NCBI RefSeq assembly: GCF_016433145.1
Contig: NC_058131.1
Location: forward strand, 257,176,432 to 257,240,431
Direction of reading: 5' to 3'
Source of the DNA: Gracilinanus agilis
Taxonomy: Eukaryota
DNA: 64,000 nucleotides
A model generated the notes under the pieces. That model ran no database searches and was not told the origin of the DNA. It worked only from the letters and a program-made list of their open reading frames with translations. Below are positions 38,288-47,149 of the stretch, piece after piece (the stretch's first letter is position 1; every line of letters begins with the position of its first letter). The position numbers and the translations under genes are program-made.

Positions 38288-39631
38288 CTTTCAATCAGTC
38301 AAATTTTAAATGATAGCTTTTTAGTTACATAATGATGGGACTAGAAAGGATGTCAGGATTAAGCTCATGATTGAGACATTCACTAGAAGTTTGCAACCTC
38401 CAGTGTACATAATAGATATAAACATAAAAGAATAGCATAATAGATACTTAGACATTGCTATGCCCCACTCTCCGTCCCTTGTAACATTTTTTGCTGGACA
38501 GTGCCCTCTCTTCTACCTCCTACTGTGGTTTGTGAAAATCTGTAGAGCCATTACTCTTCAGTTTCCCTTTATTTCAGTTGTACTATATCATCTCTCTTCT
38601 TTTCATTAGACTTCTTGAAAGAGTGGCCTATATATGATAACTGATACTAAAATACTATCCACTCATTCCTTAAATTTTTTCTTGCAATCTGACTTGGTCT
38701 CCATCACTCAACTGAAACTACAATCTGGAATGTGACCAATAGCCTCCAATGGCCAAATTCAATAACCTTTCTCCCCACACCCCCATAAGATTTAGATATC
38801 AGCTTAGAGATAATCTAGTCCAACTCCATCATTTTGTTTATGAGGAAACTGAGGCTAGAGACTTTCATGACTTGCCCAAGGTTGAAGAGCTAGTTATTAA
38901 GAGTCAGGATTCAAGCCCATATCCTATTTCCAAATGCAGTGCTTTCTATAATCCTAAATTACCTTATCCAATCACTTCATATGTTCAGTTGATTTCTATA
39001 GGATTTCCCAGTATAGCATCTTCAACCACTCAGCATTTGGTGTTTCTACTGGAGTTAAAATAAAGGGGGATTGAATTATTAAATCGAGGAAGAAAACACA
39101 TGCAATATTTTTACAGGCTGTCTTTGGTTTTCCAGTACTAAAACTTTATTTTAACCTTCAGTTCTGGCAATAATTACTATGCATTTGGAATACAAAAAGT
39201 ATTTTTTTCAGAAGTCATTTATGTTTTATTATGGCTAAAAAGGCATTTGCTTCACTTTTTCTTACTAAAATTTTCTCCTTGGCTCATTTGTGATTTAAAT
39301 GGATTTTGGATATTGAGACCTTCTGTTCAAGTCCAGACAAAATATAACATCAGGAAATCAAGCAAGGTTGACAACTTCTGGGGAAATCTTGGACATCAAA
39401 GGACACTCATTTTAATTTCTTTAGTTACCAACTGAAAATGGAGTTAACAAGATGCGTTTTCTGGCATGTATCGCATGAGATATGTATAAAAGGAAAAAAG
39501 AGAACTTGCAAATGGACATCTTTGGGCTACGGTTGAATCGATGGCTCTCTATGTAGAAAAGAGCTTAAAATTGTGGGTAACATGAAAGGTCATGGAAAGG
39601 ACATGGAGGGGAGAGTAAAAGTAAACTGCAG

Positions 39632-39826
39632 GGGGCAGCTGGGTAGCTAAGTGGATTGAGAGCCAGGCCTAGAGACGGGAGGTCCTAGGTTCAAATCTGG
39701 CCTCAGACACTTCCCAGCTGTGTGACCCTGGGCAAGTCACTTGACCCCCATTGCCCACCCTTACCAATCTTCCACCTATGAGACAATACACAGAAGTTAA
39801 GGGTTTAAACAAAACAAAACAAAAAA
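39632..39826 (+). mobile_element. Young SINE1_Mdo-like SINE, full length
   Basis: Head ggggcagctgggtagctaagtggattgag, A-rich tail, perfect 15-bp TSD aaaagtaaactgcag. Confidence 0.93.
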
Positions 39827-40858
39827 AAAAGTAAACTGCAGCATTTTTCCAGTGTTCTACATTTAAGAATAACATAATAGATATCACTGAGTAAACAAAT
39901 GTTTAGAAAAGGAGATAGAATAGTCATGTGGTACAAGTAAGGAATGACAGTACAGCCTAATCTTTCCATTGATATTCTCAGAATATTAAAAAAAAGGCTT
40001 AGAGAAAGGTCTAAGATATATTGGGTGACTCCTCTGAGAAACATCAGTGGAAGAATGGGGAAGAAAGTTGCTCAGGGTGGTTGAAACCTGTTGTGATGGA
40101 GGAAGTGTCCACTTTGATGCTATACTGTTATTGCCACTTGAGGCAATAACAAGTGCTCATATTGCCCAAATCCAAAGTCAGGAATTAAAATTAATATCCC
40201 ATTTTATTGTATGTTACCTTGAGCTCTTCTTATGGGAAAACTGGATAGGATTCTTAGGGCCATGAAGCTATAGTTATTCAGATAATTAATTCTCTCTTTC
40301 ATTTTTTGTTGTGTAAACTGAAACAAAATTGGACTACATTTAAATTGTATATAAGCAATTCTCGATTATCTCTGTCATTGGTAAGCAACAGAGGTGTCAG
40401 GTGCTTTTAATTTATTTTTATTGGATACATTTTAATTGGAATAAGAGTATGGATGATATTTAGGAAATTTATTTTTGTTGTTTTTATTCAGTTGTATCTG
40501 ATTCTTTGTGACCCCACGGACCATGCCAGTATAATCCATGGTGTTTTCTTGGCAAAGATATAGCGGTGGTTTGCCATTTCCTTCTCTAGTGGATTAAGGC
40601 AAACAGAGGTTAAGTGAATTGCCCAGGATCATAAAGCTAGTGAACATCTGAGGCTGGATTTGAATTCAGGTCTTCCTCATTCTAAGCCCAGCACTCTATC
40701 CACTTAGCCATATACTTCCTTTTTGCTATGTAGACTGAACCTAAATTGGGCTATTTGGAAATCTTGTACAAGTAACTCTCAGTTATTGGTGAGAAACAGA
40801 GGTGTCAGACTACCTACAATCCATTTAAATTGTGTTTGTTTTTATATTTCAGTTGGAA

Positions 40859-41882
40859 TTGGAATGCAAGGGGCATATATGAAGTTGCCAAGAGAGTAAC
40901 ACAGAGGTACAGAATGTGTATGCAATTCAACCAGACAATTACAAAAGTCCACAGCCTGGGAGGCAAACCACTAGCCTATACACCAGGGATTGGCAACGTA
41001 TGGCTCTTTCTGCAGGAGCCATAAAGTCAGTTTTTTTTCAGGCAACTGTTACAGGAGCGCACTGTGAGCACTGTACGGCTCTCATGAAATTACATTTTAA
41101 AAAATGTGGCATTTATGGCTCTCACGACCAAAAAGGTTGCCGATCCCTGCTATGCACCATTTGAATGCCTACAAATTGATTATATCACTATGCCAAGGAG
41201 TCAAGGTTACAGATATGCTTTAGTGATAGTGGATAGATTAACCAAGTGCCCAGAAGCTTTCCCAGCAAAACATAACACCTCAGCATTTGTTGTGAAAGTC
41301 TTACTGAGAGAATTAATACCCAGATTCTCTATCCCACTCCACATTGCATCAGATTCTGGGTCCAACTTCACGAATAAGATTTTAGCTACAGTTTATGAAA
41401 CCTTAGGAGTCAAACAACATTTTCACTCAATATATAGACCGCAGTTGAGCAGGCAAATTGAACGCGTGAATAAATCTTTGAAGACTCTAATAGCAAAAAT
41501 CTGTGCAGAATCCCACATGAAATGGCCTGATGCATTACCATTGGCACTATTCCATCTAAGATGCCAACTCAACAACATTACGCACTTATCCCCATTCGAA
41601 ATGCTGTATGGCCATCCACCTTTCCATGGCAAGTCACCTCAAAGCATTCATAAATTATCACACCTGGGTATGGAATGCAAACTCTTTGAATATATTAAAT
41701 TACTCAGGCAACAATTAAATCAACTCCATAAATTAGGCTTGATACATCAAAGAGTACCCTTTGATTTTAGTCTACACAACTTCCAACTTGGAGATTATGT
41801 TTACATCAGAAACTTCACTAGGAAGTCTGTGTTAGAACCCAAGTGGCTTGGACCATCCCAAATAATTTTAACTACTCCTACC
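40859..41882 (+). pseudogene. Class I (gamma/epsilon-like) ERV pol fragment: integrase, from the end of the Zn-finger region through the DD35E core to the C-terminal GPxxIILTTPT motif
   Basis: Translation PFECLQIDY...LIPRFSIPLHIASDSGSNF...RPQLSRQIERVN...LSPFEMLYGHP...LEPKWLGP..TTPT. Exactly 35 residues lie between the second D and the E. Removing the MITE and one TSD rejoins GGKPLAY to APFECLQID in frame. Confidence 0.93.
40984..41149. mobile_element. hAT MITE, family B, internally deleted copy (166 bp), inserted in the ERV integrase
   Basis: TIRs CAGGGATTGGCAAC / GTTGCCGATCCCTG. TSD ctatacac / ctatgcac. Aligns with 222-425. Confidence 0.93.
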
Positions 41883-41892
41883 TGGCTTGCCA
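41874..41892 (-). promoter_or_regulatory. Retroviral primer-binding site, tRNA-Arg(ACG)-like
   Basis: Minus strand TGGCAAGCCAGGTAGGAGT, 5 nt after the LTR end ...ATAACA. 16/19 identical to the complement of the tRNA-Arg(ACG) 3' end as I recall it (TGGCGAGCCAGCCAGGAGT). Confidence 0.75.
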
Positions 41893-41897
41893 ATTAA

Positions 41898-43530
41898 TGT
41901 TATCAAGAAATAAATAAGGTAATCTGAGTCAATGAACGCAATTTGGGTGTGAGGAAGGATAAATGGGGATATTAGGTGATTATAAGGTGATTGGAGGAGG
42001 AATGAAGGTATGGGAAGGTATATAGGAGATAAGGGAAATGGGGTATGTAGGAGAGGGCAGCTCAAATAGGTTTATTCTCAGACGCTTCAGACAGAGGATA
42101 CAGGGAGGAAATTAGGGCCAGTAAGAAATGTTTAGGTTTGGGTAGAGGGGTTCTTTTGTTAGTTTCTAAAGTCTCTTGAGGAAGGAGTTGAGAGGGCCCC
42201 GCCCTGCCAGTCAAACTGATGTCTGAAGGAAGTCTCGGGGTGGTACTTCCTGCCAAGATGGATGTCCCCAGCTCCCCTCAAGGAAATAGAAGAAAATGAT
42301 TCCTTCCCCTTGAGCCCTTGTCTTAATTTTCGACACAATGATTCACCAGAGGGTTTAAATAGGTATCAAGGGGATTTGTTAATACCAGGGTCAGTCAGAA
42401 GGGGAGGGGTTCAGGGTTTTCTAACTGCTACTAGGGAGAGGGGTGAGGGTGGGGGATGGGTCATGGAGAGGTTTAGACAGAGAGAGTCCAGCTCTCCCAG
42501 TCAGGAAGATTTGACTGCCTTTTAAGTAAAGTCTTTATCAAATCATTAAAACTAGGGGTAACTAAAGAATGCCTACCCTTTGATCCAGACATACCATTGT
42601 TGGGTTTGTACTCCAAAGAGATCATAGATAAACAGACTTGTACGAAAATATTTATAGCTGAGCTTTTTGTGGTGGCAAAAAACTGGAAAAGGAGGGTATG
42701 TCCTTCAATTGGGGAATGGGTGAACAAATTGTAGTATATGCTGGTGATGGAATACTATTGTGCTCAAAGGAATAATAAACTGGAGGAATTCCACGTGAAC
42801 TGGAAAGACCTCCAGGAATTGATGCAGAGCGAAAGGATCAGAGCCAGAAGAACATTGTACATAGAGACTGATACACTGTGGCACAATCGAATGTAATAGA
42901 CTTCTGTACTAGCAGCAATGCAATGACACAGGACAGTTCTGAGGAACTTTTGGTAAAGAACGCTACCCACTTTCAGAGGAAGGACTGCAGGAGAGGAAAC
43001 ATATAAGAAAAACAACTGCTTGAAGGCATGGGTTGAGATGGACATGGTTGGGGATGTAGACTCGAAACTACCACACCAATGCAACTATCAACAATTTGGA
43101 AATAGGTCTTGATCAATGACACATGTTGAAACCAGTGGAAATGTGCATCGGCCATGAGTGGAGGGATTGCGGGGGTGAAGGGGAAAGTAGGAGCATGAAT
43201 CATGTAACCATGTTAAAAATGAATATTAATAAATGGTTAAAAAAAACTAGGGGTAACTTATTGGAGGATACGCTACTAGCCTATAGAAACTAAACCCACA
43301 ATGTCTAATCACCAAGCCCTCCCTTCCACCAGGATCCAAAGGAAATTCAGGGAAGGGGAGGGATGGAGATGGGAGATCAGGGAGAGGTCCAGAGAAATGA
43401 GACCGGTCCAAATTTCCCCAAGACAAAATAAGCACAGGCCAAGGCCGAAGCAATTAGGCCAAAGCCAATAGGTTAAGCCAAAGCAAAAGCCTCCAGCCAC
43501 AGCAAAAGCCAGAAGGCAAAAGCCTCATCA
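41898..43530 (-). mobile_element. ERV LTR (about 940 bp after removing the inserted L1), 5'-LTR type because it is followed by a PBS
   Basis: Minus strand starts TGATGAGG (or TGAGG) and ends TTGATAACA. TATA-like CCTATTTAAA near 42355 and AATAAA near 42072 are in the right order on the minus strand. Confidence 0.85.
42564..43242 (+). mobile_element. 5'-truncated young L1 (ORF2 end + 3'UTR + poly-A) inserted in the LTR
   Basis: Perfect 16-bp TSD aaaactaggggtaact at a TT/AAAA endonuclease site. Encodes PFDPDIPLLGLYSKEI...CPSIGEW. Confidence 0.95.
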
Positions 43531-45354
43531 GTTGGAACTTCACCTCTATTTTTAGCTTCAAGTCCTAACTGACTTTCTGAAGATTCCAAGATGTTTAACT
43601 GACTTTTTGTGACCGTTAGAAATTACAGAAGCAAAAAGTTTCTGTTAGCCACCTTGCATTACAGAATAAAGTTGTGATTGATGGCTAGGAAATTCATTTT
43701 ATTTCAGACTAATCTGTGGAGCATTAATTTGTCCTGGGGAACTGAATAATTGTCTCATCCTTCCCTGTAATTCAACATCTAATTGGAATTAAAAAAAAAA
43801 CATTTCTACCACATTTCATATGGTGGGTATTCGAGAAAAATTTTTAACAATATATATTAATAATAGACCACATTTGTACAGTGCCTCTTTACAGTTTAAA
43901 AATAATTTCTTCACACTTTTGGGGGTAATATAACTCTTATTCCTCATGTTTTACAGAAAAAACCAAAAGGCTCATTAACTGGTCCAGGGAGACAAGAGAT
44001 TTGCCCAAAGTCTCAAAGATAGTAGTAATTAGGCATCTAAGTGATTCAGTGGACCACCCCTGGAGATAGGAAGACCTGAGCTAGAATATGGCTCTGAGTT
44101 GCTTACTGGCTGTGTGACTCTGGGCAAGTCACTTACTCTCTTCCTGCCACTGTTTCCTCATCTATAAAATGGGTATAACAACACCTGCCTCCCAAGATCA
44201 AATGATAGAACATGTGTAAAATCCTTTGCAAGTATTTAAGTGATATATAAATGCCAGCTGTTGTTGTCAATGTTAAATATTGTTGTTATTATCAGAGATG
44301 AAATTTGAACTCAGATTGTCTGACTCCAGAGTCAAGGTTATTTCCATTGTACCACTCTGCTTCTTGCCACATTGGGCAGCCTTTTAAACACTAACTTTTT
44401 CCTGAGCCTGTTCTTTTCCAATATAAGCATCCCTAACTCTTTTAGCTGATGGTGTCTGAGAAAAACAAGAGGACTTTAAAATTCCTAGTTGAAATTTTCT
44501 TTTCTGGAGCTGTTCAAAGTTTTCTAATTAGTTTAATGCTTATGTGGCAGCAAGTACCTCTTCCTTTTTGCTAAGCCTACCACCCCAGAGAGGGCATATA
44601 AACACTTTTCAGCATCCCTGGACCCTGTGATCTCTAATGGATTTTTGTTTGTCATTTCTGACATGGAGACTCTCAAGATGTCTCTTCGTCAAAGGCAGGT
44701 AATAGCTCCCTAATGCCCTTCTAGTAAAGGCTATTTCATGCTATTGGAATTTGCCACACTGTTTACACAACTTCTGTTTCTTCCATAGAACATTTGTTAT
44801 GTAGTATTTACCAATTAATGTTATTACCCACAAGAATTGCCTGTGTTCCTAGTTAAATATTGTTCATTGCTGTGTCTGTGCAAATATGTACATGTAGACA
44901 TACAGATTAGGCCATGTTATTGAGGAAAAGGTTGGCTCTGGCTTTAGAAGAAGTGATCCATAAACTCACGTTACGTGTAAAAGTAATTTAGAATCCAGAG
45001 GAACTTAACAACACATGATTCTTGGTCTGTCTTGAGACACGAGTGGCCTTGTGCTAAGCGATTCTTATTCTCACTTGGCAAATTAGTTCATAAATTGTTG
45101 ACTGTTCAAGAACAGAGTCAAAATAAAATAGAAAAAAGGAAGGAAAGAAAATTTTTAAATGGCCCTGATTGCAAGTGATATGCTGCCAGTTTGCACTGTT
45201 TTGAGAACACTCAAGGATGAAAAAAAGGGAAAAGTGAGGAGAAAACGGGTCATGAATAGCAAAATCCTAATGAGATATTTTTGGATAGTTCTGCATGGCT
45301 TTGTGATTCCAGAGCTGAACTTTACTCACAAGAAGCAAAATGTGAAGAACACAA

Positions 45355-45960
45355 ATATTTAGGTGTAATATTTATGTGAGCTCTTTTTGTGATAGCGGAA
45401 TACTGGAAATTGAAGGAACGTTCATTAATTGGGGAATAGCTGGACAAATTTTGATATATGATTGTGATGGAATGCTATTGTGCTATAAGAAATGATGAAC
45501 AGTGTAGTTTAAGGAAAACCTGGGTAGACTTGCATGAACTGATTTAAAGTGAAGTGAGAAGAATCCTAACAACATTGTAAACAGTGATGACAATATTGTA
45601 ATGAACAACTTTAATGACCTTGCTCTTCTCATCTATTTTGTAATCCAAGACTTTCCAAAGACACAAGATGCAAAATAACATCCACCTCCTGAGAAAGAAC
45701 TAAGGAACTGTAATACAGACCCAGTTGTACTTTATTTCACTTTCTTTCTTCATTTTTAAGATCTCTTCCAAAAAATTACTAATATGGAAAAATATTTTGT
45801 GTGATTGCACCTGTAAAATCTATATCATATTGCTTGATGACTCAGGTAGAAGAAGGGGAGAGGTTGATGGAGAGATTTTGGAACTCAAAAAATTTTAAAA
45901 GATGCTTTAAAATGCTTAAAATTGTTTTTTACTTGTAAATTTGAGGGGGGAACATTAAAA
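45355..45960 (+). mobile_element. Old L1 3' end (approximate)
   Basis: cattaattggggaatagctggacaaatt...tgtgatggaatgctattgtgctataagaaatgatgaac L1 motif, followed by 3'UTR-like sequence. Confidence 0.7.
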
Positions 45961-47149
45961 AATAACATTTTAAGTATGCTAGGCACTGTGCTAAGTGAAA
46001 GAAATCTAAATACCAGAAAAATAGTACCTGTCCTCTAGGAACTTATATTCTACTAAGGGATGACAAAACATATAAGAGAGGGGTTACTAGGGAAGGAAAG
46101 GAATGGTAAGAGGAGCCATAGGATTGATCATATCTATTCAGAAAAGGTAGGGGAGGCTACATAGCACAGTTGATAGAGTAGCATCCCTGGAATCTGGAAA
46201 ACTTCAAAGGTGATCTCAGACACTTACTAGCTGTGTGACACTAAGCACATCACTTAATCCTGCTTGCTTCAGTCTCCTCATCTGTAAAATGAGCTGGAGA
46301 AGGAAGTAGCAAATCACTTCAGTATCTTTGCCAAGAAAACCCCAAAATGGGATCATGAAAAATTGGATATGAGGACAAACAACTGAACAAATCCATAAAA
46401 TGTACTATTGATTTGATTATTGTTCTCTAAGCTAAAAATGGAAGTTGTGGTAGGAGGGATTGGGAAGGATAGGTGAGAAACAGATATGTCAGTGTCATGG
46501 CATTTGAAGGTGGCTGGGAAGTCTTGATTTGACTAATAATGGAGAATTCTTACCATTTGGAGGGTAACACTCTAGGGAAAGAGTTGAAGGAAAACATTGA
46601 AAGAGACATGGCATAAAAATGGCCAGAGAGAATCTGTATGGTGAGTATGTGTTGGGCTATTGATGGAAAACTCTGAATAACTGGAATGCAACATCCCAGT
46701 GTGGGAACTGGAGGGTCCTGGTTGTTGATAAGATGCATGGCATGAAAATAGCTAGAAAGCAGTAGGATGCTAGGTCTGAATCAGGCTGGCAACTAATCAA
46801 TCAAGTATTTTTTGAGTACGTACTATGTGTGAGGTCCTGTGTTATAGACAAAAAGACAAAAAATAATCAATATTTGTTCTTAAAGAGCTTACCTTTTGGT
46901 AGTGGGATGTGTCACATATTTGGGAGTGGTGGCTAGAAAATGGAACTTTCTTCTAGGTAGTCAAGGTGATTGTGAATGAAGCCATTGGGCAATAGATTTT
47001 CGTGGCCTTTCCAGGAGGAGACAAGCTCTCAGTAGCAAGTGTGTAGCCACAGGACACATGGGAAAGTGCCCACACTGGTTGATCCACAATTTAACCAATG
47101 AGGAGAGTATCTTATTCTCTCAAGTACTCTCTTCACAGAATTAAAGAAT

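Follow-up and report, generated by a model that had tools for sequence, protein, structure and literature searches.

A head-to-head endogenous retrovirus remnant with a tRNA-Arg tail in Gracilinanus agilis as a probable product of failed plus-strand transfer

We analysed a 64,000-nt stretch of the Gracilinanus agilis genome (RefSeq assembly GCF_016433145.1, contig NC_058131.1, forward-strand positions 257,176,432 to 257,240,431; hereafter the window), which contains at 40860–43663 a ∼2.8-kb remnant of an endogenous retrovirus (ERV). The remnant has TG...CA ends and consists of one long terminal repeat (LTR), a copy of a tRNA 3′ end and an inverted piece of the integrase gene. It was most probably formed before integration by a failed plus-strand transfer, in which a tRNA-tailed LTR became joined through seven bases to inverted integrase and was then likely integrated by both ends. 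Similar tRNA-tailed products are a recurrent class, with ∼20 in the genome, and not the one-off reverse-transcription error that a first-pass annotation of the window had proposed.

Structure, boundaries and target site

As that annotation had recognized, plus-strand integrase (Pfam rve, E 3e-13; MLVIN_C, E 1e-9) adjoins a minus-strand LTR with a tRNA-Arg-like primer-binding site (PBS), the junction lies inside the PBS, and no other part of the ERV family (gag, reverse transcriptase (RT), env, polypurine tract (PPT) or second LTR) is found elsewhere in the window. The suggested genome search for the junction returned a single occurrence: among 40 scored of 2414 candidates, only the window spanned the query. 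The boundaries had been misplaced. The 10-mer tcagttggaa, taken as a 10-bp target duplication, is indeed present at 40849–40858 and 43528–43537 (two occurrences in the window against 0.43 expected, a count reached by 7 of 100 shuffles), but it marks no boundary: the right-hand copy belongs to U3, 126 nt from its outer end, and 26 of 29 other LTR copies carry the identical 10-mer at the corresponding position, a count that leaves out two rows representing the window itself. LTR homology with other copies extends to the minus-strand TG of the LTR start at 43663 and integrase homology to a TG at 40860. Both ends are flanked by GAAT, giving a true duplication of 4 bp. The LTR, described as complete, does reach its outer end but is interrupted by a 679-bp insert, presumably a 3′ fragment of L1 from the resemblance of its translation (Pfam returned no match).

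A duplication of exactly 4 bp was found in 11 of the 22 parsed LTR loci of the family, the remainder including some proviral 3′ LTRs or mutated copies, and 4 bp is also the size reported for murine leukaemia virus (MLV) and the xenotropic MLV-related virus (XMRV) (PMC2857682; this and later citations refer to excerpts of the papers). The target site has an older host paralog, whose alignment to the left flank ends at 40859 and whose alignment to the right flank begins at 43664; 2 of 2000 random segments score as high. The paralog joins these two positions and not, as had been predicted for the empty site, 40858 to 43538; the right end proposed earlier gave no comparable paralog alignment. The left flank is single copy in the genome search. 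With TG...CA at both ends and a 4-bp duplication, the element was likely integrated normally at both ends, in contrast to the one-good-end integration previously suggested. Three diverged copies of the host segment lie in the window (40369–40475, 40777–40859/43664–43700 and 46469–46492), the segment being single-copy elsewhere in the genome search.

Family of the LTR and integrase

By alignment, the LTR and the integrase of the window belong to one ERV family, which its domains place in class I. The two are colinear in L017 and L018, and of 20 native-PBS loci the five that reach integrase are all colinear with the LTR. A proposed check for same-family proviruses carrying both parts in normal orientation turned up L017, L018, L132, L136 and L142, and such colinear copies rule out an origin of the LTR and integrase from unrelated ERV families. 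The window element itself does not have the LTR, PBS and pol on one strand as a colinear provirus does, its integrase being inverted.

Provirus L132 encodes Gag p30, RT, RNase H and an integrase with an MLV-type C-terminal domain in gag–pol order. The TG...CA LTR ends, the 4-bp duplication and this set and order of domains agree with class I (gamma-like) membership; the best solved-structure matches of the integrase were to foamy virus, which gives no class placement. Between integrase and the 3′ LTR there was no sense frame longer than 69 aa (L132) or 64 aa (L203) in a region that received no Pfam scan, and env there appears decayed or absent. In L132, L129, L143 and L144 the region before the 3′ LTR has an A-run followed by mixed sequence and not a G-rich purine tract.

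Two other kinds of inverted element were rejected. DIRS elements use a tyrosine recombinase and make no target duplication, and an inverted-LTR element of this type is excluded by the DDE integrase and the 4-bp duplications. L1-mediated 5′-inverted retrocopies have a poly(A) tail, start at R or are truncated, and are flanked by 7–20-bp duplications; the complete U3, the lack of a terminal A-tail and the 4-bp duplication exclude such an origin. Separately, in L087 (6305–8780) and L020 the first 20–29 nt of U3 are fused to mid-integrase and followed by a normal 3′ end, with a 4-bp duplication in L087, a layout that may reflect a premature plus-strand jump or a later deletion.

Native and tRNA-derived primer-binding sites

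The tail in the window matches the tRNA-Arg(ACG) genes L123 and L124 at 18 of 19 nt. Three of its letters had been read as PBS mismatches, two of them as an integrase ACC codon; those two are genuine letters of this gene variant and the third is a CpG-type change. The TTPT codons assigned to integrase at the junction likewise read T-T-P-S in 9 of 9 copies displayed in that orientation.

A genome search with U5 followed by the family's own PBS gave 102 matches, at least five of which are inside rearranged elements and a few on duplicate contigs. In the first 30 listed, agreement with tRNA-Arg(ACG) was 94% at positions 1–8, 29% at 9–22, 88% at 23–38 and 22% at 39–50, and all 30 departed from the tRNA at positions 9–22. 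Read in this alignment, the native PBS is bipartite, with a mismatched middle. Another tRNA-like gene fitting it with up to one mismatch had 0 matches in the assembly, where absence is no proof. With two in-register tRNA copies against ∼96 native sites, the primer sequence is almost never inherited, and the family does not follow the standard pattern of an 18-nt PBS complementary to the primer with a primer copy often inherited. A PBS survey of a second family gave 13 matches, each resembling the tRNA through position 11 or beyond and with mixed continuations, and provides no control, the pattern being poorly sensitive to other PBS forms.

A recurrent class of tRNA-tailed LTRs

U5 followed by a tRNA-type PBS was matched 23 times, or at 21 distinct loci after two duplicate pairs were reduced. 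Two of these (L080 and L086) continue in register into the native leader, whereas the other 19 leave the family leader right after the tail, compared with 0 of 30 native-PBS loci (Fisher p 4e-12), all of which run on into the shared leader. Ten of the 19 are followed by an inverted family segment, namely L046, L059, L073, L075, L078, L082, L083, L084 (a call based on a 28-nt match), L085 and the window; five others jump in the same sense and four pass from the tail directly into non-family DNA. An exact 4-bp duplication flanks five of the ten inverted elements, one has 3 of 4 bp, one has none and three are not scorable, while three of the four tail-only elements have a 4-bp duplication, which in two cases overlaps the last tail bases. 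No duplication was found for L070, L071 or L083, and the far end of L082 was not found within the next 10 kb. A looser pattern added seven further loci from this family and its relatives. In none of them does the leader of this family follow in register, and three are inverted, with duplications of 3 of 4 bp (L211), 4 of 4 bp with an altered end (L224) and unclear (L220).

The arms of the head-to-head elements have diverged by 3–4%, similar to the LTR pair of L132 (3.2%); the figure for L143 was left out as an alignment failure. Since a rearrangement after integration has no reason to select tRNA-tailed copies, these products would have formed before integration.

In L083, the exception in divergence, the arms are 0.5% apart yet 15% from other copies, which points to an assembly artefact or to gene conversion of one arm by the other. 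In L077 and L081, which are a bare LTR plus tail, the last 2–4 tail bases double as the target duplication, as if the tail had annealed to a staggered target end.

Footprints of a mature tRNA

Genome-wide, 39 CCA-bearing read-through copies of tRNA-Arg were found, and of the 30 that were inspected nearly all are preceded by an LTR-like CA end; their upstream sequences form 18 clusters. Opposite A58, 17 of the 30 have a base other than T, compared with 3 of 118 at free control positions (p 1e-11). Opposite A34, five of six have C, and the tails, whose lengths cluster at 38–41, derive from three isodecoders. We take tRNA-Arg(ACG) to carry inosine at position 34 (I34) and 1-methylguanosine at position 37 (m1G37). 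Misincorporation at 1-methyladenosine (m1A) has been reported (PMC4787781), and the mismatches at tRNA positions 58 and 34 are as expected from copying of a mature, modified tRNA. These footprints together with the three isodecoders exclude both tRNA genes and a perfect PBS of an ancestor as the copied source.

Read-through tRNA-Arg tails also follow the LTR ends of many other families (L148–L177). A jump of the tail to the U3 end of the same element has rebuilt a CA end ahead of the duplication in L166 and L172; in L155 and L222 the tail jumps back into U5, and in L153 it leads straight to the duplication. Among ten read-through loci of other families examined for the head-to-head layout there was no clear whole inverted LTR and one short inversion (L188).

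Proposed mechanism and rival explanations

The central idea of the first-pass annotation, that plus-strand strong-stop DNA did not complete the second transfer and that its 3′ end instead paired with sense integrase sequence and was extended backwards, is supported by the contrast between tailed and native loci. The native PBS matches the tRNA in two boxes, 1–8 and 23–38, but not between them. In computed pairings, the duplex of the tRNA with the RNA would equal or exceed a perfect PBS in strength (42 nt, −39 to −51 kcal/mol, versus −39 to −41 for a perfect 18-mer), whereas the 18-nt DNA tail would pair at about half strength with the minus-strand PBS (−12 to −14 on the un-decayed copy L096 versus −26), leaving its last two or more bases free. 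The free 3′ end would then have paired with sense integrase and been extended backwards for ∼850 nt.

The proposed template, sense RNA, holds as to the strand, but its nature is more probably DNA. The 5′ end of viral RNA lacks U3, yet the inverted parts of L073, L083 and L085 each include the native PBS and a complete, U3-containing LTR. A second plus-strand DNA is the simplest template, and the two strands would have primed each other by their 3′ ends into a duplex. In the window this second strand would have started at a stretch of integrase that mimics the attachment (att) end of U3. Integrase would have used the U3 att end and this mimic, leaving the TG...CA ends and the 4 bp that are observed. 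The L1-type fragment and a 166-bp element with terminal inverted repeats (presumably a hAT-like miniature inverted-repeat transposable element, MITE) were inserted later. When both strands of the internal region are compared with the U3 end, the mimic ranks first in four of five natural proviruses. Of 323 integrase copies with this motif, the first 100 listed include one with foreign upstream sequence, which is the window; a directed pattern found two more copies (L199 and L200) that begin within 2 nt of the same TG.

Several observations weigh against this reconstruction. The 7-nt pairing with integrase engages the 3′ end but at a predicted −7 kcal/mol falls short of the native 8-bp pairing, and the jump would therefore require a free 3′ end or help from the polymerase, and several sister junctions have microhomology of just 0–4 nt. 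The locus itself does not discriminate between an RNA and a DNA template. The three unscorable inverted elements and the head-to-head L083, with its nearly identical arms and no matching duplication, lend no support from their ends. The mimic is mutated in L142, L199 has an 11–12-bp duplication and L200 none, and the two extra starts at the mimic are borderline against chance (p 0.05–0.17). No read or contig bridging the junction at 41880 was found in one public run (39% of words), whose contigs are short; a single-depth contig of that run covers 43644–43900, differs there by 6 nt and reaches too little of the LTR to serve as a bridge, and the run is uninformative on this point.

The rival that survives best shares the failed transfer: a longer head-to-head provirus with two U3 ends would have been integrated, and a later ∼6-kb deletion between the far LTR start and the integrase mimic would have kept the 4-bp duplication. 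Long head-to-head sisters are known (L073, L082, L083 and L085), inverted repeats are generally unstable, the host-plus-U3 and integrase sites are alike over ∼17 of 21 nt, and the borderline status of the two extra mimic starts leaves such a deletion some room. We consider it unlikely but not negligible, as the third base is that of integrase, which confines the crossover to a 4-nt window, and the commoner hybrid with the third base of the LTR gave 0 matches in a pattern search detecting ∼3 in 4 such cases, though colinear proviruses offer the same pair of sites.

It is very improbable that an ordinary provirus had its PBS reverted to the tRNA sequence and was inverted and deleted after integration. 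In-register reversions exist (L080 and L086) and deletions are common in this family, but the inversion would need breakpoints exactly at the tail end and at the far duplication, and PBS breaks in 19 of 21 tailed versus 0 of 30 native loci would be left unexplained. We give as little credence to an assembly misjoin of two repeat copies, for which the lack of a bridging contig in the one public run could speak: both flanks combine into one host site with a 4-bp duplication, the left one being single copy, and the junction has a tRNA copy that is absent from normal proviruses, with many sisters of the same grammar. A mobilised non-autonomous family with this layout can practically be dismissed, as the junction occurs once, each tailed locus on chromosome-scale contigs has its own distinct junction, and there is neither a second direct-orientation LTR nor a PPT.

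Feature coordinates and neighbouring insertions

Table 1. Positions of the parts of the element, its insertions and its target site in the window
Feature	Positions	Strand	Remarks
Older host paralog of target site, spanning the empty site with a single GAAT	40369..40475	+	Left- and right-flank alignments (right, 40439-40475) overlap exactly at 40439-40442
Left target-site duplication copy GAAT	40856..40859	.	Integrase copies diverge here; host paralog 40369-40442 alignable to 40859
Integrase segment, inverted relative to LTR	40860..41880	+	847 nt without insert; Pfam rve and MLVIN_C; 88-96% to family copies; colinear with this LTR in L132, L136, L142 and others
Far end, integrase stretch mimicking U3 att end	40860..40871	+	11 of 12 nt; begins TG
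Later insertion with terminal inverted repeats, 166 bp, inside integrase	40984..41149	.	8-bp duplication 40976-83 / 41150-57
7-nt microhomology	41874..41880	-	Common to tRNA tail positions 13-19 and antisense integrase
18-nt copy of tRNA-Arg(ACG) 3′ end	41875..41892	-	Isodecoder of genes L123/L124; differs from the native PBS of the family
LTR, TG...CA, ∼1.07 kb net	41898..43663	-	
Later insertion with A-tail, 679 bp, splitting LTR	42564..43242	+	16-bp duplication 42548-63 / 43243-58; very high copy depth
10-mer tcagttggaa, right-hand copy	43528..43537	+	Internal U3, no boundary
Right target-site duplication copy GAAT	43664..43667	.	Host paralog 40439-40475 alignable from 43664

Elsewhere in the window, 45367–45500 is an older copy (75%) of the L1-type sequence that interrupts the LTR, and 39626–39799 is a young insertion with an A-rich tail and a flanking direct repeat, which we take to be SINE-like.

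Implications and comparison with known systems

Beyond the probable failed plus-strand transfer in the window, we tentatively propose, at somewhat less than even odds, that a marsupial class I ERV lineage moved to Ty1/Ty3-like replication. Its bipartite PBS would hold tRNA-Arg as RNA and defeat the DNA jump, the primer would not be inherited, and dead ends integrated in the germ line as head-to-head and tail-only proviruses, unable to collapse to solo LTRs, would preserve RT footprints (m1A58, I34 and a stop before 37) that are millions of years old. Tailed products may be over-represented because they cannot recombine to solo LTRs. We found no account of such an ERV family or of tailed head-to-head germ-line products in a literature search that covered subscription and older virology thinly and included no repeat database, which is weak evidence of novelty; the excerpt of PMC12789967 contains nothing on such products.

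Second-transfer errors are known mostly from cell culture, and here they can be counted in the germ line with native versus tRNA-copied PBSs as a built-in control. The set also shows which ends integrase would accept in vivo (two U3 ends, an att mimic and a tail annealed to the target), makes it possible to test whether decay of the PBS buys escape from silencing at the price of failed replication, and provides dated fossil traces of tRNA modification. Annotation tools expecting direct-repeat LTRs would break such elements into unrelated pieces.

Plus-strand transfer errors were reportedly described by Pulsinelli and Temin in 1991 in single-round retroviral vectors. Inverted or asymmetric proviruses are reported for HIV-1, with inversions in 2 of ∼80 (PMC9278108), and these resemble the present class as rearranged proviruses arising at strand transfer. 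Unlike them, the present class is germline-fixed and head-to-head, is tied to a native PBS with mismatches, and was integrated via an att mimic or two U3-type ends. An aberrant one-ended integration with a 273-bp duplication was described for an XMRV clone (PMC2857682); it fits the ragged-end sisters L199 and L071 and the integration proposed in the first-pass annotation, whereas the element in the window ends in CA on either side and has the usual 4-bp duplication.

HIV, MLV and simian immunodeficiency virus (SIV) often inherit a primer copy (PMC7472051, PMC6450007), in contrast to the 2 versus ∼96 found here. In mouse ETn, MusD and IAP and in SIV the commonest PBS departs from the primer tRNA, as it does in this family, but by one or two mismatches and with frequent reversion, for which ∼50:50 is proposed (PMC7472051, PMC6450007); here ∼10 of 14 middle positions differ and in-register copies are rare by the same count.

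[quoted passage not shown] This family would share the bipartite PBS, judged from its sequence and predicted pairing, the non-inherited primer sequence and the dead-end tailed products. It differs in being a class I (gamma-like) ERV by its domains that uses tRNA-Arg as primer and whose two in-register PBS boxes are separated by a mismatched middle of 14 nt, and PPT recycling is not part of the likeness, as flap removal by host repair would yield the same inheritance count without it. The comparison suggests that a vertebrate retrovirus can cease to inherit its primer, as yeast Ty elements do.

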